Positions 5,586 to 49,051 of a stretch of 64,000 bases of DNA are shown one piece after another; position 1 is the first letter of the stretch, and the number at the start of each line of letters is the position of its first letter. Source of the stretch: Ostreococcus lucimarinus (Eukaryota). A program made the translations under genes and the position numbers. The notes under the pieces were generated by a model that was given only the letters and a program-made list of their open reading frames with translations, did no database searches and was not told where the DNA came from. Where the stretch lies: the NCBI GenBank assembly GCA_000092065.1, contig CP000581.1; one strand, 5' to 3'.

Positions 5586-6833
5586 TCAATTCGGCGGGTA
5601 CATCGGAGCGTACACGCCCGCGGCGAACATCGGATGCACCGCCGGCACCGCGCCGTTCGGCACGCCGGCGGCTGGCATTTCCCCCGCGGCGAAGGCGCGC
5701 ACCAGGCTCTTCGCCGCGGCGATATTGCTCTCGTGGGGACCCTTGAGCTCGACCGCGCTCGTATTCGTCTCGGGATCGGTTTCGATGAGGGACACTTGAC
5801 ATCCCGAAATTTGCGCGATGGTCGAAATGTTGTTCCCATGATCGCCCAACACGTTCGACACGGCCTCGCCCTCGACTTCGACCGTTTCGTGAATCATCGG
5901 CGGCGGCATCGCGGACGGTGGAACCGCGGGCATCATGTACATCGGAGGCATGGGCGGCGCCGCCATCATCGCCGGCGTGATGCCGACGATGGCGGGATCG
6001 GCGAACGCCATGGCCGCCGCCGCGTTCGCCGCGTACTCCGAGCGCATGTCCCTCGGCGCCGCGACGGTCGGCTGATAATACCCCAACACGCTCGAATCCA
6101 CCAAAAAGTCTCTGAGCAAATCAAACACGAGCTCCGCCGCCGCGCGCACGTCCTTCCTCGGCCCGTGAATCTCCACCACGCGGTCCTCGCTCGTGGCGCA
6201 CGGAGGCACCTGCCCGACTTCTTGCACCGCCACGTGCGCCCCGTTCGCGAGCAATCGAATTTTTCTAATATTTTCCCCACCCTTCCCGATGAGATGCCCC
6301 GCCTGACCCGCCGGCACGAGCAATCTCAGCGCCACGTGCGTCCTTCGCGGCGCCCCCGTCGTCTCGCCGTCGTTCAACCTCTTTTCCCCACCCTCGTCCC
6401 CCAAATCCGTCGATTCCCCGCCATCGCCGTCGCCGCTCGCATTTTCACACCCCCCCTCGTCCCCATCGCTCCTCTCCGCGTCCTCCGTCTCGTCGTCCGA
6501 CCCCTCGCCGCCTCGCCTCGCGTTCGACGTCAAGAATTTCACCACCATCATCGCCGCCGTCTTCGCCGCGCACGCCTCCTTCCGCGCTTCCCGCCCCCTG
6601 GGCGCGCTCACCAACACCGCCCGCTCCAACCCCTGCGTCGGCGATTCCAGCACCTTGACCGCCGCGCCCGTCTCGCCGACGATTCGTTTGACGTTCGCGC
6701 CCGATTTCCCGATCAATCCGCCCACGCGCGTCTCCGCGCACAGCACGCGGAACACCGCGTGCCCGAGCGTCGCGCGCGCGTCGTCGTCGCCGTCGCCGTC
6801 GCCGTCCGCCGTCGGCGTCGCCGCGGTCGTCAT
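5586..6833 (-). CDS. KH-domain RNA-binding protein (PCBP/hnRNP K-like, 3 KH domains)
   Basis: Three type-I KH motifs: IGKSGANVKRIVGETGAAV, IGKGGENIRKIRLLANGAHV, LGDHGNNISTIAQISGCQV. Acidic Gly/Asp linker between them. Confidence 0.8.
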   Translation of the reverse strand: MTTAATPTADGDGDGDDDARATLGHAVFRVLCAETRVGGLIGKSGANVKRIVGETGAAVKVLESPTQGLERAVLVSAPRGREARKEACAAKTAAMMVVKFLTSNARRGGEGSDDETEDAERSDGDEGGCENASGDGDGGESTDLGDEGGEKRLNDGETTGAPRRTHVALRLLVPAGQAGHLIGKGGENIRKIRLLANGAHVAVQEVGQVPPCATSEDRVVEIHGPRKDVRAAAELVFDLLRDFLVDSSVLGYYQPTVAAPRDMRSEYAANAAAAMAFADPAIVGITPAMMAAPPMPPMYMMPAVPPSAMPPPMIHETVEVEGEAVSNVLGDHGNNISTIAQISGCQVSLIETDPETNTSAVELKGPHESNIAAAKSLVRAFAAGEMPAAGVPNGAVPAVHPMFAAGVYAPMYPPN

Positions 6834-7252
6834 CGCGGCGGCGCGCGCGCGAGTGTCGCCTGGGGGGGACGGCGACCGTCCCGGTCGGTCGGTCGGTCGC
6901 CGCGCGCGTCGCGCGACGACGACGCGCGCGCGCCCGCGGCGACGCGACGCGACGCCGCGCGCGGGTCACCGAAGGCTCGATCGTCTCGGAGAATTTCGTC
7001 TCCATTTTCGCGCGTCGCGCCGCGGTCGGCGCGCGCGTCGCGGGCGTCGCGGTCGGTCGGTCGCCGCGCGCGCGACGACGACGCCGCGCGCGCGCGCGCG
7101 ACGACGGCACCGCGCGCGCCGCGGCGGGCGAGACGCCGGCGCGCCTCGCGCGCGGGCGACGGATTTTTCCCCGACGGTTTTTCGCGCGAATCCGCGCGTC
7201 GCGACGACGCGCGACGACTCGGCGCGTCACATCGCGACGACGCGAACGACCG

Positions 7253-9043
7253 ATGGCGCGACGAATGACGACGACGCGCGCGGCGACGACGACGCGCGCG
7301 GCGACGACGACGGCGGCGCGACGGCGCGCGCGAACGGCGACGCGATGTCGCGCGAACCGCGACGACGCGCCGTCGGCGCGGACGACGCGGTTGCTCGAAG
7401 ACGTCGCGACGACGAACGCGACGGCGACGACGCGCGACGCGCGAGGCGCGGGCGCGCAGACGACGCTGGACGGATTGCGCGCGCTGGACGCGGCGTGGGC
7501 GAAGATGCGCCGCGGTGACGCGACGGCGACGGCGACGGCGACGGCGGCGTTCGCGAAGCGACGGGAAGGCGCGAGCGACGCGCGCGGGGAGACGTACGAC
7601 GTCGCGGTGGCGGGCGGGACGCTGGGGGTGCTCGTCGCGGCGGCGCTGCAGAGACGAGGCGCGAGGGTGGTGGTGGTCGAGCGAGGGGAGCTGAGAGGAC
7701 GCGAACAGGAGTGGAACGTGTCGAGGGAGGAGTTGGAGCGGTTGGTGCGCGTCGGTGCGATCACGACGGAGGACGCGGACGCGTGCACGCGCATCGAGTT
7801 TAATCCGATTCGGTGCGGGTTTCACGGCGGAGGGAACGGGAACGGGAACGCGGGCGATTTGGTGACGAGGGACATTTTGAACACCGGGGTGTCGCCCGCG
7901 GCGCTCGTCGAGGCGTGTCGGAAGAGATTCGAAGAGGCGGGCGGCGCGGTGCTGGAACGAGCGTCGCTGCGCGGCGTCGAAGTGTACGACGACTGCGCGG
8001 TTCTCGACGTGGACGGCGTGCCCGTGCGCGCGCGGCTGGTTTTAGATTGCATGGGGTTTCAATCGCCCATCGTGCGTCAAATCAGAGACGATAGAAAACC
8101 GGACGGCGTGTGCGTCGTCGTCGGAAGTTGCGCCGAGGCGGACGCGTTCGACAACTCGTCGGCGGATTTGATTCGCACCGTCACGGACATCGAGGAAGAC
8201 TATAGAGGACAATACTTTTGGGAGGCGTTTCCCGCGAGCACCGGGCCGCGAGATCGCACGACTTACATGTTCACGTACATGGACGCCGATGAAAGTCGCC
8301 CGAGCATCGCGTCGATGCTCGACGATTACTGGGACCTCATGCCTTTGTATCAAGGCTTGGATTCAATCGAAGACGCCAAGCTCAAACGCGTTTTATTCGG
8401 GTTGTTTCCGACGTACAGAGACTCGCCGCTGAAGACGGAGTTCGATCGCGTGCTCGCGATCGGCGATGCGAGCGGCATCCAATCTCCGTTGTCCTTTGGC
8501 GGCCTCGCCGCGATTTTGCGCCACATCTCGCGAATCACGGGCGCGTGCGAAGAGGCGTTGGACGCCGACTGCCTCGACCGCGAAGCCCTGAGAACGGTGA
8601 ACGCGTACCAGCCGGCGTTATCGGCCGCGTGGTTGTTCCAAAAATGCATGAGCGTCGAGGTCGGATCGCGCCCGAAACGCGACTTCATCAACCGACTCAT
8701 GCGAATCAACTTCAACGTGATGAGCCGCCTCGGAGAAGACGTCTTGCGCCCCTTTCTCCAAGACGTCGTCACTTTCAAAGGCTTGGGCAAAACCTTAGTC
8801 TCCATGACCCTGACAGAACCGTTATTCGTCCCCGAGATCCTCATGAACGCCGGCGTGGGTCCCATTTTAGATTGGTTCAAGCACTTCGCCGCGCTCGGCG
8901 CGTACGATTTCTTGGCTTCGCCAGCCGCCGCTCTGGCCGATACGGTCAAAGACTTCAGCGCGGTTTCTCCGCGCCGTCGTTTCATCATTCGTCGTCAGTG
9001 CGAAGCCATCATTTACGGTGCCGGTCGCGACGTCATCCCTTAA
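7253..9043 (+). CDS. FAD/NAD(P)-binding oxidoreductase with organellar presequence (lycopene-cyclase/CruP-family-like; functional assignment tentative)
   Basis: Arg/Ala/Thr-rich N-terminus, then the Rossmann dinucleotide motif YDVAVAGGTLGVLVAAALQRRGARVVVVERG, then a long conserved-looking globular region. Confidence 0.7.
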   Translation: MARRMTTTRAATTTRAATTTAARRRARTATRCRANRDDAPSARTTRLLEDVATTNATATTRDARGAGAQTTLDGLRALDAAWAKMRRGDATATATATAAFAKRREGASDARGETYDVAVAGGTLGVLVAAALQRRGARVVVVERGELRGREQEWNVSREELERLVRVGAITTEDADACTRIEFNPIRCGFHGGGNGNGNAGDLVTRDILNTGVSPAALVEACRKRFEEAGGAVLERASLRGVEVYDDCAVLDVDGVPVRARLVLDCMGFQSPIVRQIRDDRKPDGVCVVVGSCAEADAFDNSSADLIRTVTDIEEDYRGQYFWEAFPASTGPRDRTTYMFTYMDADESRPSIASMLDDYWDLMPLYQGLDSIEDAKLKRVLFGLFPTYRDSPLKTEFDRVLAIGDASGIQSPLSFGGLAAILRHISRITGACEEALDADCLDREALRTVNAYQPALSAAWLFQKCMSVEVGSRPKRDFINRLMRINFNVMSRLGEDVLRPFLQDVVTFKGLGKTLVSMTLTEPLFVPEILMNAGVGPILDWFKHFAALGAYDFLASPAAALADTVKDFSAVSPRRRFIIRRQCEAIIYGAGRDVIP

Positions 9044-19161: not shown

Positions 19162-19360
19162 GCGCGCGCGCGGCGAACGCGATGAAACGTCGCGAACGCG
19201 AACGCGATCGGCGCTCGACGCGACCGAACGCGTTTAATAATAAAGAAGCGCACACTTCGTCGACGCGTCGACGCTCGCCCCGCGCCGCGCGCTCGACGAA
19301 TGAGTGAAGACGACCGCGCGCGAGATTCCGCGACGCGCCGTCCGCGCGCGACGACGCGCG

Positions 19361-20146
19361 ATGGGCGGTCGCGGGCGCGGTGGACGCTCGAACGCGTGGA
19401 CGCGCGACGGCGGTCAGGGACGCGGCGGTCGCGGACACGCCGCCGTCGGCGTCCGAAGACGAGACCTGCTCCAGGAAGATTTGCTCGACGAGAAACCGAA
19501 CTGGGCGCTGTCGTGCTACGGCCCGAAGGGCGAGCAGCCGAACCTGCTCGGCGGTGACACGTCGTTCGAGGAGCTGCGGTGCGCGGCGTACGCGACGGTG
19601 CGCGCGGGAGGGGACGCGGGAGGCGCGCACGCGCGAGCGCGCGAGTACGCCGACGCCAAGGCGGGCGACGTCAAGGGAATACTGGCGTTCCCGGAACATC
19701 AGCTAAAGTTAGTTTTGGACCGCGTGGAGCGAGGGGAGATGGCGCCCGCGGGCGCGGATCGCGTGATGGACGGAACGGCGATCGTGGGGGGTGGGGGAGG
19801 GTTCTCGAGGACGCACGCGCCGGCGCTCGACGCGAGGGCGACGCCGTTCGCGCCGGCGGGTGGGATGGCGAGCGGGTTCACGGGGAATCAGCCTTCGTTG
19901 ACGCCGGTTGCGACGGGGTTCGTGGCGAGCGCGCAACCGACGAGTCCGTTCGGCGGCGGTCCCGGAGGCGGCGCGAGTCCGTTCGGCGGCGGTCCCGGAG
20001 GCGCGAGTCCGTTCGGCGGCGGTAACGCGCCGCGCGCGCCGTCGCTCACGCCGGATCCGAACGTCCCGAACTCAGAGGCGTGGTGCGCGCCTTCGTTCGA
20101 CATCGGAGGCGTGCCCGACGACCCGCCGCCCGCCGCGTACGTTTGA
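19361..20146 (+). CDS. FG-repeat nucleoporin NUP42/NUPL2 (hCG1)-like
   Basis: PNWALSCYGPKGEQPNLLGGDTSFEELRCAAY aligns with human NUPL2 [32 protein letters not shown]. C-terminal SPFGGGPGGG x3 (FG repeats). First in-frame ATG is at 19361 (the track start at 19304 is GTG). Confidence 0.6.
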   Translation: MGGRGRGGRSNAWTRDGGQGRGGRGHAAVGVRRRDLLQEDLLDEKPNWALSCYGPKGEQPNLLGGDTSFEELRCAAYATVRAGGDAGGAHARAREYADAKAGDVKGILAFPEHQLKLVLDRVERGEMAPAGADRVMDGTAIVGGGGGFSRTHAPALDARATPFAPAGGMASGFTGNQPSLTPVATGFVASAQPTSPFGGGPGGGASPFGGGPGGASPFGGGNAPRAPSLTPDPNVPNSEAWCAPSFDIGGVPDDPPPAAYV

Positions 20147-20193: not shown

Positions 20194-23061
20194 TCACTCG
20201 CGAATCGCGAATTCACTCACCGATCTCGTCATCGGTGTCTCATTTTCTGCCTCTGCGGCCTCGAGCGCTTTTTTGTCATGCGCTTCGCGCTTGCGTTGCC
20301 CGCGCGCCTCTCGAGCGATGACTTTTCGTTGCGAACGAATCATATTGTCAAACTCCGACGTCAGGCGATAATCAAACTGGTACGCCCACTGTACCTCGGT
20401 GTCTTGAAACACGAGCGCGCGAACGTCGCCTACGGCGCGAGCTGACGTCCACGCCGTGAGAGTTTCTTCTTCGCCGCTCGCTTCCAAGTTTTTCAATTCA
20501 CCGACGAAATTGCCCACTCGACGAACGCCGACGACGACGCCGTCGCGAGTCAGCGTGCACTCGCCTGCAGTTATTATGAAGAACTCCGTCGCCGGGTCAC
20601 CCTGCCGCGTGATGAGCTCGCCGCTTTTGAATCGACGTTCAGGTGGTTGATGAGAGATGGAAATCAACCCGTCGAGTCGGGTGTGCAGGTTATGCAGCGT
20701 GTCCGAAGTGTGCGAAGCCTGGCCAGTGAACCAGGCGTGTTCTAGTGCCTGAGTCGCGGTGAGCCTGCGCTTGGGATTGGGATCGAGTAAACCTTCTATC
20801 AAATCCTTCGCGACATCACTCACAGATTCCCACTCCTCCGTTTCGAAATCGAGATCACATTCAATGATTTGCTCGTAAAGTTCATCCTCATCGTCGTCAT
20901 CAAACGGCCACGTATTCGTGAGCAGGACGTGCATGGCGATTCCGAGCGCCCAAACATCCACGCCTTGACCGTACACGCCAGCAAGTAACGCCTCTGGGGC
21001 GATGTACGATAGTGTACCACACACGTGCTGCGCTTTTTGACGAGCGTTCAACGCCTTCGCCAAACCAAAATCGACAATGTTCAACGACTTCAAATCGCCC
21101 TTTTCAGCCAGAACAAAGTTCTCGAGCTTCAAATCTCTATGAATGACACCCTTGCCGTGCATGAACGCCACTGCATCGAGCATGGCAGACATTATTATCT
21201 TGACCTCTTCTTCGCTAAATGCCCCGCGCGCGTTCACCAAATCGTCGAGCTCCTCGCCTTGCAAGCAATCCATGACGACGTGCACGACTTCATCGTTTTG
21301 TTCAGTGAAAAACTCTCGTATGGTGACGATATGCGGGTGCGCTGAGAGCTGCTGCATCATGACGAGTTCGCGCTTGACTTCATGAAGCGTCATGGATTGA
21401 AGCTCATCCTCATCGTCGCTGTCTTCATCGCTCGATGACTCACTTCCACCTTCGTCGTCGCTGTCGCCGCCTAAACCTTCGACGCGAAGCGTCTTCACGG
21501 CGACGATTTCACCCGTGTTACGATGCTTCGCCTTGCGCACAACGGCAAAACCACCGGCACCAAGAGTTTCTAAAACGTCGTACTTGTCTAGGAAAGGCAT
21601 ATAATCGTGCACTAACCCGACTGGGCGAACAAAACGCGATGTGTCAAGATCGTCCAAACCGCCCGGCGCAGAATTCGTTCGTTTCAGCCCGAGCTTGTTT
21701 CGCGTTCGACCTTCGGGCTTATGTTCGATGCGTTTGGCGAACAAGTGCGCTAAACGATAGCTAGGCATGGCTTTAACCAGTAATCCTTTGGTGTCGAATC
21801 CCTGCGGTCGTTGCGAATTCTTCAAATTGTTTGGCATCGCTTGAGCGCGCAAGCCACTCCAACCAGTGTTGATTTGCCTCTTCGTCGCGCTCCCCATTCG
21901 AGTCAAACCGGCAGAGTTCTTGCGCTCCAAAGTCATGGCGTGCATACGGTCACTTATGAACGGTGCCGGAGACGCGCTTCGCGAGCCTCCTGGAGATTCA
22001 CCTGGAGACTTCGTCGCCTTCGCGAGCGCGGCGAGATCCGGCGCGCTGTCCAACCGAAGCAACTGCGCGTGACCACGCGCAGCTTTCCCTCCGTAAGATG
22101 CAGGTTTCACCGATGCCCAAGCACTCAGACCAACAGGTAGTAAACCTGCGCGTTTCGCTCGTTCAATAAGCTCGCCAAAGATTTCGGGTGCCTTGGGAAC
22201 GTCTATGGACACGTCCTTGAGCGCCGTGGCGGTGCGCGCGAAACCTTTCGCCATTTGACTTCCGTTCACCACAGAGCTCCGCCCGATGTATTTCAATAAA
22301 TCCACCACCTTTTCGATGACGTTAGGGGTCAAGATCGACTGCTCGATCGCCAGCGTCAGCGCTTTCTTGACGAGCTCGTGATGGTAAAAAGGCATGTTCA
22401 ACCGACGTAATCGCCGCTCCGCCTCGGCGCCGTCTCTCGACATCAAATACTCATCGATGATATCCCGCATCTCTATCTTGGCGTTATCCGCGCTGTATCC
22501 CTCGGGTCCGCCCCACGCCTTACGCACGCGCGACTCCCCACTCGCATCGGCCAGCGTCATTTTCGCCGACTTGGCCACGTCTCTTCCTTCGCCGTAACCG
22601 TCCCTCGAGCACGCCGTCTCCAGGTACGTCACCGACACCACATCATCCGCCACCGCGCGCGCCAAAAACGTCACGCACTCAGCCACGGCATCTGGGAAAT
22701 CGATTTTCAAATCCGCAACCTCCGCGAGCACGCGATCGAACCCACGTTCGAAATCCTCCGCGTCCAGCGTCCCGCTCGCCCTCGTCGCCGCGAGCGCCTG
22801 CGCGCACATCTCCCGCTCTCTCGCCCCTCTATCCAGCGCGCACGCGATCATGCGCTTCACGCAGTGCGCCTCCAGCCCACACTTCGCATCGCTCGCCCCC
22901 GCGCCCCCGCCCTGCGCCGCGATCGTCTCCGCGAGCGCGCGGTCGAACTCCTCCACGCTGCAGTGCGAAAAGAACTCTCGACAGCGCTTCTCCACGTCGC
23001 GCTTGAACGCCACCTCCTGTCCGACGTAATACTTGGACCGCGACGACCACGGCGCGGACAT
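20194..23061 (-). CDS. Multidomain protein: two PDCD4-like MA3 domains + CaMK-like Ser/Thr protein kinase + C-terminal cyclic-nucleotide-binding-like domain
   Basis: Start MSAPWSSRSKYYVGQEV (ATG complement at 23059-23061). MA3 motifs IIDEYLMSRDGAEAERRLRRLNMPFYHHELVKKALTLAIE. Kinase motifs LGAGGFAVV, AVKTL, HRDLKLENFVL, DFGLAK, SYIAPE. cNMP-binding motifs FKSGELITRQGDPATEFFIITAGEC ... GELKNLE. The upstream 205 codons of the track ORF (to 23676) are an Arg-rich artefact. Confidence 0.85.
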   Translation of the reverse strand: MSAPWSSRSKYYVGQEVAFKRDVEKRCREFFSHCSVEEFDRALAETIAAQGGGAGASDAKCGLEAHCVKRMIACALDRGAREREMCAQALAATRASGTLDAEDFERGFDRVLAEVADLKIDFPDAVAECVTFLARAVADDVVSVTYLETACSRDGYGEGRDVAKSAKMTLADASGESRVRKAWGGPEGYSADNAKIEMRDIIDEYLMSRDGAEAERRLRRLNMPFYHHELVKKALTLAIEQSILTPNVIEKVVDLLKYIGRSSVVNGSQMAKGFARTATALKDVSIDVPKAPEIFGELIERAKRAGLLPVGLSAWASVKPASYGGKAARGHAQLLRLDSAPDLAALAKATKSPGESPGGSRSASPAPFISDRMHAMTLERKNSAGLTRMGSATKRQINTGWSGLRAQAMPNNLKNSQRPQGFDTKGLLVKAMPSYRLAHLFAKRIEHKPEGRTRNKLGLKRTNSAPGGLDDLDTSRFVRPVGLVHDYMPFLDKYDVLETLGAGGFAVVRKAKHRNTGEIVAVKTLRVEGLGGDSDDEGGSESSSDEDSDDEDELQSMTLHEVKRELVMMQQLSAHPHIVTIREFFTEQNDEVVHVVMDCLQGEELDDLVNARGAFSEEEVKIIMSAMLDAVAFMHGKGVIHRDLKLENFVLAEKGDLKSLNIVDFGLAKALNARQKAQHVCGTLSYIAPEALLAGVYGQGVDVWALGIAMHVLLTNTWPFDDDDEDELYEQIIECDLDFETEEWESVSDVAKDLIEGLLDPNPKRRLTATQALEHAWFTGQASHTSDTLHNLHTRLDGLISISHQPPERRFKSGELITRQGDPATEFFIITAGECTLTRDGVVVGVRRVGNFVGELKNLEASGEEETLTAWTSARAVGDVRALVFQDTEVQWAYQFDYRLTSEFDNMIRSQRKVIAREARGQRKREAHDKKALEAAEAENETPMTRSVSEFAIRE

Positions 23062-23178
23062 CTCCGCGACGCGCTCGCCGCGACGCGACGCGCGCGCGCG
23101 ACGCCAGCGCGTCGAACGGCGCGATGTGATGCGCACCGAACGCGTCGCGCGCGACTTCGCGACGCGTCGCGCGTCGCC

Positions 23179-24525
23179 ATGGGCATCTTCGACGGCATCT
23201 TCGGCGGCGAGCCGCGCGCGTCGAGCGGCGCGTCCGCGCTGTTCGACGCGCGGTCGGCGTTTCACGCCGCGAGCGCGGCGGACGCGCCGGTGGTGCGCGC
23301 GCCGTTGTCGGCGTCGGCGAAGAAACGGGCGCGACGCGACGCGAGCGCGGACGCGACGGACGCGCGCGCGAAACGCGCGCGAGAAAAACCGAACGCGCGC
23401 GCGGCGAGCGCGGCGTCGTCGTCGTCGGACGCGGCGTCGAGCGAGGATGAGGGCGAAAGCGAGGACGATGCGCCGGCGGCGGCGGCGGTTTCGGACGAGA
23501 AACCGAACGGCGACAGCGACAGCGATGAGGGAGCGACGAAAGCGAAACCGTCGGGGTCGGGGTATCGCGATCGATCGGCGGAGGCGACGGCGGAGGAGCT
23601 GGCGCGGACGGTGTTCGTCGGGAACGTCCCGGCGAAGACGAAGCTGAAAAAGTTGAAGGCGAAATTCGGCGAACACGGCAAGGTGGTGAGCGTACGGTTG
23701 AGAAACGTGCCCGTGGAAGCGGATGGAAACGAACCTAGGAAAATTAAAGTGCTGAAGGGAAAATTAAACGCGGAGCGGGCGAACGCGACGGCGTTCGTGG
23801 TGTACGACGACGCGGCGTCGGCGCGCGCGGCGACGGCGGCGTTGAATATGAAGGAGTTCGAGGGACGGCACATTCGCGTTGATTTAGCGAGTAAACCATC
23901 GATCATACGAAGTGAGGTGGTGTATGATCACACGCGAAGTGTCTTCTTGGGCCATTTACCGTTTAATGTCGACGATGAGGACGTGATTCGGTTGTTCAAC
24001 AAGAATAAAGAGTATCCCGATTTGCGCAAGAGCGTCGAGGCCGTGCGCGTGGTGCGAGACAGAAAGACGACCATGGGTAAGGGCATCGGGTTCGTGTTGT
24101 TCAAAACGCCAGCGCAAGCGCGTACGGCGCTTTTGCTTGACGGGAGTAAGCTCGGCGATAGAGAGATTCGCGTGAGCAAAGCCGCTCGATCCAAGGCGCC
24201 GAAACCCGGCACGCCGAGCAAGGCGCGCGCCGAGCCGAAGGTCGCCACCGGTGCCGAACGACGGAATCCGAAGCTTCGTGACGAAGGTGGCGATGCGTCG
24301 ACGTCGCGTGGCACAAACGCGTGGGAAGGGTCGAGATCTCGTCCCGGTGGAAAATCGTCCAAGAGCGCGCACCGCGGCGGCGAGGCGCAGCGCGGCGCCC
24401 CAGGCGCGAGGCAAACTTCGAGTAAAGCCGGCATCGCGAAGGCGGCCAAACGATCGGGAAAGCGCCCCGCCGTGGCGGCGCGCAAGGCCAAAGCCAAGGC
24501 GTCCGCGGCGGCGGGACGTAACTAA
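23179..24525 (+). CDS. Nucleolar RNA-binding protein with two RRMs (Nop12/RBM34-like)
   Basis: RRM1 TVFVGNVPAKTK...ATAFVVYDDAASARAA. RRM2 SVFLGHLPFNVDDEDV...KGIGFVLFKTPAQARTAL. Lys/Ala-rich basic tail. Confidence 0.8.
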   Translation: MGIFDGIFGGEPRASSGASALFDARSAFHAASAADAPVVRAPLSASAKKRARRDASADATDARAKRAREKPNARAASAASSSSDAASSEDEGESEDDAPAAAAVSDEKPNGDSDSDEGATKAKPSGSGYRDRSAEATAEELARTVFVGNVPAKTKLKKLKAKFGEHGKVVSVRLRNVPVEADGNEPRKIKVLKGKLNAERANATAFVVYDDAASARAATAALNMKEFEGRHIRVDLASKPSIIRSEVVYDHTRSVFLGHLPFNVDDEDVIRLFNKNKEYPDLRKSVEAVRVVRDRKTTMGKGIGFVLFKTPAQARTALLLDGSKLGDREIRVSKAARSKAPKPGTPSKARAEPKVATGAERRNPKLRDEGGDASTSRGTNAWEGSRSRPGGKSSKSAHRGGEAQRGAPGARQTSSKAGIAKAAKRSGKRPAVAARKAKAKASAAAGRN

Positions 24526-48840: not shown

Positions 48841-49051
48841 GTCTTATCTTCGGATATGACACCTGATAAACTGGAAAAAAATACAGAGAAGATTAGCATG
48901 GCCCCTGCGCAAGGATGTGAGTGTTCGCTCGGACGCTCGCGCCGCGCACGCTCGGACTCGAGCGACGACGCCTATGCGCGGCGACTGACGGTCGCGTCGC
49001 GCGCGAATCGCAGGACACACAATAACTCAAGAAAAGTTACACGTTTTTTTT
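48841..49051 (+). ncRNA. U6: U6 spliceosomal snRNA gene interrupted by a 97-nt mRNA-type intron (exon 1 48841..48916, intron 48917..49013, exon 2 49014..~49051)
   Basis: Exon 1 GTCTTATCTTCGGATATGACACCTGATAAACTGGAAAAAAATACAGAGAAGATTAGCATGGCCCCTGCGCAAGGAT has the 5' stem-loop with TTCG loop, the ACAGAGA box and the AGC triad. Intron GTGAGT...CTGAC(48985-48989)...CAG. Exon 2 GACACACAATAACTCAAGAAAAGTTACACG + T8 terminator. The spliced RNA matches plant and human U6 (..GCAAGGAU|GACACGCA..). Confidence 0.8.

Follow-up and report, generated by a model that had tools for sequence, protein, structure and literature searches.

A conserved Ostreococcus lucimarinus gene joins a PDCD4-like MA3 pair to a CaMK-like protein kinase and a cyclic-nucleotide-binding-fold domain with a degenerate cassette

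Does a single gene of the marine picoalga Ostreococcus lucimarinus tie a module of the kind that binds the RNA helicase eIF4A directly to a protein kinase, and is that kinase under cyclic nucleotide control? The question is raised by an open reading frame (ORF) at positions 20194..23061, on the minus strand, of a 64-kb stretch of contig CP000581.1 (the window, by which we mean the whole stretch of DNA analyzed). Translation of the ORF placed the ATG at 23061 and the stop codon at 20194-20196, with no internal stop across 955 codons, giving a single-exon gene for a protein of 955 amino acids. The protein is composed, in order, of two MA3 domains, a disordered linker, a CaMK-like kinase domain, a domain with the cyclic-nucleotide-binding (CNB) fold, and a C-terminal helix. 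In a Pfam domain scan all named domains scored above the curated cut-offs, at levels far beyond what chance would give. An earlier sequence-only reading of this DNA had described one uninterrupted 955-codon frame with these domains in this order; the frame is indeed open throughout, and the scan bore out both the identity and the order of the domains. We conclude that the locus almost certainly encodes one conserved protein with the architecture described. All features of the protein discussed below are encoded on the minus strand.

The window protein is itself present in public collections as P0380, and P0001 is 99.6% identical to it. The full architecture was found, colinear, in 21 clusters (clustering at 90% identity) from a database of 5.8 billion proteins, whose identity to the window protein ranges from 38 to 100%. 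Two deeper full-length homologs emerged when 1.84 billion representatives were searched exhaustively with a profile, namely P0176 (883 residues), which is 36% identical end to end, and P0178 (1070 residues), which is 32% identical. The architecture is thus present from end to end in at least 23 clusters at identities down to 32%. A profile search of a word-indexed database yielded no new family members; detection of P0176 and P0178, and of the kinase-CNB family considered below, needed the exhaustive search of representatives. P0094 (1153 residues) is the complete ORF of an MMETSP transcript and contains the full fusion. The Bathycoccus ortholog P0016 is located on a contig whose Dus3L is 98% identical to an NCBI Bathycoccus prasinos protein. 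This contig and the window have a common gene order of acetyltransferase, RRM gene (head-to-head), fusion gene, convergent Amo1_N gene and Dus3L. The sequence-only reading had suggested looking for the fusion in other Mamiellophyceae, and in Bathycoccus both the fusion and its microsynteny are kept. Among named proteins, the Dus3L of the window is closest to those of Pyramimonas obovata (49% identity) and Bathycoccus prasinos (48%). The colinear clusters, the transcript and the syntenic ortholog all support the single gene that had been proposed.

Some database entries seem to divide the gene. Entries of 588-702 residues named 'programmed cell death protein 4' are frameshifted or truncated fusion sequences, and other public labels on fragments are 'serine/threonine protein kinase', 'protein serine kinase H' (JGI) and 'CRP-like cAMP-binding protein'. 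Three metagenome proteins (P0025, P0026, and P0027), labeled 'programmed cell death protein 4' or 'hypothetical protein', were considered as MA3-only relatives and rejected, since they are members of the fusion family altered by frameshift or truncation, two of them with Arg-rich out-of-frame tails.

At the N terminus, MA3 domain 1 (22606..23007; residues ~19-152, with a loop insertion at residues 50-63) matched the Pfam MA3 model over residues 62-142 with 47 bits, and MA3 domain 2 (22135..22470; residues 198-309) matched it with 77 bits; the curated cut-off is 23.2 bits. AlphaFold2 (AF2) predicted helices for domain 1, with a predicted local distance difference test score (pLDDT) of 80-90 in the MA3 region. 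The pair aligned over both domains to the human PDCD4 structures 3eij, 2zu6, and 8xxl with E ~1e-31, and domain 2 aligned to the C-terminal MA3 domains of PDCD4 in the PDB with E ~1e-16. Acidic patches on PDCD4 form the eIF4A-binding sites, and the E249A/D253A substitution abolishes eIF4A binding in vivo (PMC3089569). In the window protein, D117 and D121 align with PDCD4 E249 and D253, and D283 and D287 align with D414 and D418, so that all four acidic eIF4A-contact residues are present. Residues D121, P123, D287, and P289 are invariant in 21/21 members of the family, and position 283 is Asp or Glu in every one.

The kinase domain (20728..21582; residues 494-778) is CAMK-group-like and matched Pfam Pkinase with 230 bits (E 3.4e-68). 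The VAVK (520-523), HRDLKLEN (641-648), DFG (664-666), and APE (688-690) motifs are all present as quoted in the sequence-only reading, which had called the catalytic domain complete. Its glycine loop of the form GxGxxG requires correction, as the actual loop, GAGGFA, is GxGxxA. The sequence GAGGFAVV, K523, E565 of helix C, HRDLKLEN, and DFG are invariant in 21/21 members. Apart from the truncated P0021, every member has the APE motif, in two cases as SPE. To judge from these residues the kinase is apparently catalytically competent. Its best matches in the PDB were CaMKII and CaMKI (~1e-47), and essentially all of the best 60 PDB matches were to CaMK-group or related kinases: CaMKII, CaMKI, CaMKIV, DAPK, the γ-subunit of PhK, CDPK, STK33, MELK, and the CaMK-like C-terminal domain of RSK. 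An acidic Ser/Asp-rich insert in the N-lobe (21397..21477; residues 529-555), SDDEGGSESSSDEDSDDEDE, lies between strand β3 (K523) and helix C (E565) and has an AF2 pLDDT below 50. The insert occurs in all family members at variable length, some having a longer one, and may represent a cluster of acidophilic (CK2-type) phosphorylation sites, which it resembles. No EF-hand or other further Pfam match was found after the kinase domain, where the CNB-fold domain occupies the position.

The MA3 pair and the kinase are connected by a linker of ~170 residues (21601..22110; residues 318-487) that matched no Pfam family and is predicted to be disordered, with an AF2 pLDDT below 50 over residues 311-487. 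Within it are three conserved stretches. The first is RLDSAP (22039..22056; residues 336-341), an R-x-x-S-x-P motif within LLRLDSAPDLxxLA (336-347) and followed by a short helix; in the family alignment R336, L337, D338, S339, and A340 are invariant and P341 is present in 20/21 members. The second, W(S/N)GLRA (21844..21861; residues 401-406), is also conserved in the alignment. The third is the pre-kinase segment (21592..21681; residues 461-490), of the pattern R-x-x-S-A-P-G-G-L...LD(T/N)...VHxxxPF, in which the 21-member alignment delineates L(K/R)RxxSAPGGLxxLD(T/N) at 459-473 and VHxxxPF at 484-490, with R461, S464, P466, G468, L469, V484, H485, P489, and F490 invariant. The pre-kinase segment is similar in relatives that have no MA3 domain, and a like motif is found in one of these, P0332, and in the deep homolog P0178. 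Both linker R-x-x-S-A-P sites therefore have an invariant Arg and Ser, with the Pro present in 20/21 and 21/21 members, respectively. The R-x-x-S-x-P pattern fits the basophilic CaMK/AGC phosphorylation consensus as well as the core of the 14-3-3 mode-I motif. The two linker sites are accordingly described here as candidate basophilic-kinase or 14-3-3 sites.

After the kinase comes a junction helix (20656..20706; residues 786-802) that is helical in both AF2 models and in which H793, R795, L796, and L799 are conserved. The helix sits at the place of the CaMK autoinhibitory helix and could have an autoinhibitory role. It leads into the CNB-fold β-barrel (20380..20640; residues 808-894). Pfam cNMP_binding matched residues 808-890 with 39.5 bits in the context of the whole protein and 42.8 bits for the domain alone, the cut-off being 27.5 bits; 16 of the 21 members reached an E of 0.01 with this model. 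A Foldseek search with the AF2 model of the C-terminal part gave 582 PDB matches at E ≤ 1e-3, the best being to CNB-B of PKG I, PKA regulatory subunits, Vfr/CRP, and CNG channels (top E 7e-8). On this modeling and profile evidence the CNB fold is real. Beyond the barrel are a long charged C-terminal helix (20242..20358; residues 902-940), predicted by AF2, and an R-x-x-S-E motif (20212..20226; residues 946-950) that is conserved in the alignment.

How might these parts work together? We propose that the MA3 pair would dock the fusion protein on eIF4A, whether the helicase is free or part of eIF4F. The docked kinase could then phosphorylate neighboring initiation factors in a manner comparable to animal Mnk. 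Alternatively or additionally, the kinase could phosphorylate the RxxSAP sites of its own linker and so switch the MA3-eIF4A interaction, which would amount to a cis version of the action of S6K on PDCD4 or MRF, possibly gated by 14-3-3. The junction helix and the CNB-fold domain would regulate the kinase from the place where CaMKs have a calmodulin-binding segment and CDPKs have EF-hands, and the CNB-fold domain may act as a pseudo-receptor with a structural or autoinhibitory role, or bind a different ligand. Taken together, we hold this picture of function to be about as likely as not, that of an eIF4A-docked CaMK-type kinase or of an eIF4A inhibitor under the control of its own kinase, which is drawn from sequence. 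A fuller version is tentative, and we think it possible but rather less than probable: that the Mamiellophyceae and at least two deeper lineages have hard-wired a translation switch in which a PDCD4-like clamp for eIF4A carries a CaMK-type kinase of its own on a covalent tether; that phosphorylation of RxxSAP, possibly read by a 14-3-3 dimer, toggles eIF4A sequestration; that through this tether the kinase could reach eIF4F and act there as the functional counterpart of Mnk in the plant lineage; and that a former cyclic nucleotide sensor is now independent of ligand or differently liganded.

Several observations weigh against the proposal. The position equivalent to PDCD4 E249 (117 in the window protein) is Asp in 9/21 members and Ser in 12/21, the latter having Glu or Asp at 116 instead. 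Only ~18 residues precede the first MA3 domain, and both the N-terminal RNA/40S-binding region and the S6K phospho-degron of PDCD4 are absent. The predicted binding of eIF4A by the MA3 pair is deduced from four residues and homology only. The RxxSxP motifs could serve roles besides phosphorylation or 14-3-3 binding. The AF2 models, which were built on shallow alignments, are modest in confidence, with mean pLDDT values of 61.5 and of 72.7 for the C-terminal part.

The first two of these observations would also fit an MA3 pair that has been repurposed and no longer has any connection with eIF4A. Its target might be a different DEAD-box helicase or some other partner, or the pair might serve within the molecule as a regulator or scaffold for the kinase, in which case the protein would not be a translation regulator. 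The lineage has a separate gene that could leave the fusion free to diverge: a canonical 2xMA3 PDCD4 homolog is listed for Micromonas and Ostreococcus (Cheng et al. 2013, PMC3850090). Identity of the fusion protein with this Mamiellales 'PDCD4 homolog' was considered and rejected, as the Micromonas RCC299 sequence in supplement 5 of that study differs. Since the RCC299 2xMA3 homolog is a different protein, the fusion gene is a paralog. O. tauri ostta05g02330 (PMC12216367) may be either the ortholog of the fusion or the canonical PDCD4 paralog. Against repurposing, the acidic eIF4A-contact loops, LD(V/F/T)P, are the best-conserved features of the MA3 domains in the family, and the similarity to PDCD4 is high over both domains. 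We regard a repurposed MA3 pair as unlikely. The coupling of an eIF4A-binding module to a kinase, which the sequence-only reading had put forward, is a reasonable idea given the conservation of the four contact residues in the window protein; the coupling as such is predicted rather than observed.

A second alternative concerns the other end of the protein. If the C-terminal domain were a working cAMP or cGMP sensor, the fusion would be a kinase dependent on cyclic nucleotides, with its domains in reversed order and the translation machinery as its target. In its favor are the cNMP_binding score above the Pfam cut-off and the structural match to PKG, PKA, and CRP. The phosphate-binding cassette (20434..20502; residues 854-876) bears directly on the question; in the window protein it is degenerate and of low pLDDT. 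All members retain its Gly-Glu (G854-E855), as a sensor would have it. Lys, Arg, or Pro stands in place of the Ala that follows Gly-Glu-x. When the protein is aligned pairwise with PfPKG and with Pseudomonas Vfr, L868-T869 fall at the canonical Arg-Ser/Thr, whereas a MAFFT alignment with the closest relatives lacking MA3 domains places A870-W871 opposite the canonical Arg position. The register of the cassette thus differs between the alignments (L868 versus A870), and in neither is the residue an Arg. Indeed, the R-[ST]-A triplet was found in no fusion member, and the canonical Arg, which binds phosphate, is absent throughout under both alignments. The loop ranges from ~10 to more than 40 residues across the family and is the least confidently modeled part of the protein, and the recognition of only 16 of the 21 members at an E of 0.01 by the Pfam model also speaks against a conventional sensor. 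As the cassette is degenerate and variable in the family, the classical response to cAMP or cGMP has probably been lost, and classical control of the fusion protein by these nucleotides is doubtful. On the other side, some CNB-like folds, such as those of the Popeye proteins, bind nucleotide with a non-canonical cassette, and the loss of the Arg is therefore suggestive but not proof. The closest MA3-less relatives, moreover, include proteins with canonical RTAS cassettes, so that the ancestral module was probably regulated by nucleotide. On balance we consider a working sensor in the fusion protein quite improbable. Of the CNB-like domain claimed by the sequence-only reading, the fold stands, as supported by Pfam and Foldseek, and the cyclic nucleotide control that it implied is weakened by the missing Arg and the variable loop.

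The relatives just mentioned were identified by profile search and form a family of MA3-less proteins of 470-640 residues in which a CaMK-like kinase is followed by a C-terminal CNB domain (P0186/P0332, P0200, P0226, P0241, P0245, P0264, and P0275). The P0241 sequence is that of a transcript from the prasinophyte Pterosperma sp. CCMP1384. These stand-alone proteins have the same order of kinase, junction helix, and CNB domain as the fusion protein, with 34-45% identity over the module, and P0332 also has the pre-kinase RxxSxP...PF motif in common with the fusions. They differ in having no MA3 domains and in that several keep the R-T-A-S cassette that the fusions have lost; a textbook R-T-A-S-V cassette is present in P0241, P0200, and P0226. 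The sequence-only reading had pointed out that the CNB domain is C-terminal to the kinase, the reverse of PKG. The order is correct, but it is also that of stand-alone CaMK-like kinases such as the one from Pterosperma. In a crude neighbor-joining tree of the kinase-CNB module, without support values, the fusions and the stand-alone relatives group apart from other CAMK-like kinases, and the MA3 fusions form one sub-group that also includes the MA3-less P0332. The simplest history would be that a pre-existing kinase-CNB protein, probably regulated by nucleotide, acquired an MA3 pair and that its cassette then decayed, an order of events that we infer.

The frame of the fusion gene remains open 5' of the ATG as far as 23676, but this extension is free of ATG codons and its translation is the Arg-rich antisense of the divergent RRM-protein gene, so that 23061 is a sensible start. 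The weakest of the alternative explanations, that the fusion is an artefact of adjacent genes joined through read-through ORF calling or misassembly, might seem to be favored by the many spurious long ORFs in the high-GC DNA here and by separate 'PDCD4' and 'kinase' pieces among database entries, but it is essentially refuted because the split entries derive from this one colinear sequence by frameshift or truncation, because there are invariant motifs inside the linker, and because independent assemblies, Bathycoccus, homologs of 32-36% identity, and the MMETSP transcript all show the same order.

The RRM-protein gene (23179-24525, plus strand, ATG at 23179) is divergent from the fusion gene, and the 117-bp intergenic spacer between the two (23062..23178), to which no strand applies, is probably a bidirectional promoter region. 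On the other side, an Amo1_N-domain gene (19304-20146, plus strand) is convergent with the fusion gene, with the stop codons 47 bp apart. The locus is very compact, and both the spacer and the convergent arrangement are kept in Bathycoccus (L006) despite a protein identity of ~46%. The GC content of the fusion gene is 0.568 (0.65 at third codon positions), below the window average of 0.624; other 2-kb blocks of the window range from 0.54 to 0.72, positions 6001-8000 being an example at 0.72. Between 17000 and 26000 both strands contain many overlapping long ORFs (100-550 residues) that are Arg/Ala-rich and antisense to real genes. Such ORFs are typical of high-GC DNA and call for caution with ORF-based gene calls in the window. 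Elsewhere, a U6 spliceosomal snRNA gene at 48841-48917 (plus strand; Rfam RF00026, 60.2 bits, E 1e-12) confirms that this is eukaryotic nuclear DNA. No tRNA genes were found across the 64-kb window.

All the modules of the fusion protein are known, and the order of kinase followed by CNB domain already exists in its relatives; what is new is the addition of the MA3 pair together with the decay of the CNB cassette. We found no description of an MA3-kinase fusion in searches of 8 million full-text papers and preprints, which is no proof that the fusion is unpublished, and neither the O. tauri kinome paper nor its supplements make mention of MA3. Likewise, no description of the stand-alone kinase-then-CNB architecture was found, and that family may merit a study of its own. 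PDCD4 and MRF are central eIF4A brakes under kinase control, and kinases of the Mnk type that act on eIF4F are absent from the green lineage. Natural fusion of such a brake with a kinase offers 'Rosetta-stone' evidence that a CaMK-type kinase and the control of eIF4A are directly linked in the green lineage. It also provides a clean case of a CNB domain retained after the loss of its nucleotide-binding signature, which informs the understanding of pseudo-receptor domains. Conservation of the gene extends to picoalgae of ecological dominance, among them Bathycoccus and Micromonas-like taxa. Ostreococcus and Micromonas are genetically tractable, and because such related genera can be manipulated, the hypothesis is testable. 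With its function predicted from sequence, the fusion is a concrete lead for translation control in these abundant marine algae.

The fusion protein may be compared with several known systems. PDCD4 of animals and MRF of plants are kinase-regulated eIF4A binders, and they have in common with the fusion protein a tandem MA3 pair and the equivalents of the acidic eIF4A-contact residues. PDCD4 differs in possessing the N-terminal RNA/40S region and an S6K/β-TrCP degron; the fusion protein is without these and instead has a kinase of its own as well as a CNB-fold domain. PKG and PKA also combine the CNB fold with a Ser/Thr kinase. In these proteins the kinase is of the AGC group and the CNB domain or domains are N-terminal, whereas the fusion protein has a CAMK-like kinase and a single C-terminal CNB domain without the cassette Arg.

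Within the CaMK group (CaMKI/II, CDPK, PSKH, and STK33) a regulatory module comes right after the catalytic domain, as it does in the fusion protein. Where CaMK and CDPK have a calmodulin-binding helix or EF-hands in this position, the fusion protein has the CNB-fold domain, and it is further distinguished from the CaMK-group kinases by the acidic insert between β3 and helix C and by the N-terminal MA3 pair. A functional parallel may be drawn with Mnk1 and Mnk2 of animals, CAMK-group kinases that are brought to eIF4F through a HEAT/MA3-type interaction (PMC3850090), although the likeness is an analogy of function only. Plants do not have the eIF4G HEAT-3/Mnk arrangement (PMC3850090). Mnk is recruited to eIF4G, whereas in the fusion protein the recruiting module would be covalently attached and its target would be eIF4A, homology between the two systems being limited to the kinase group.

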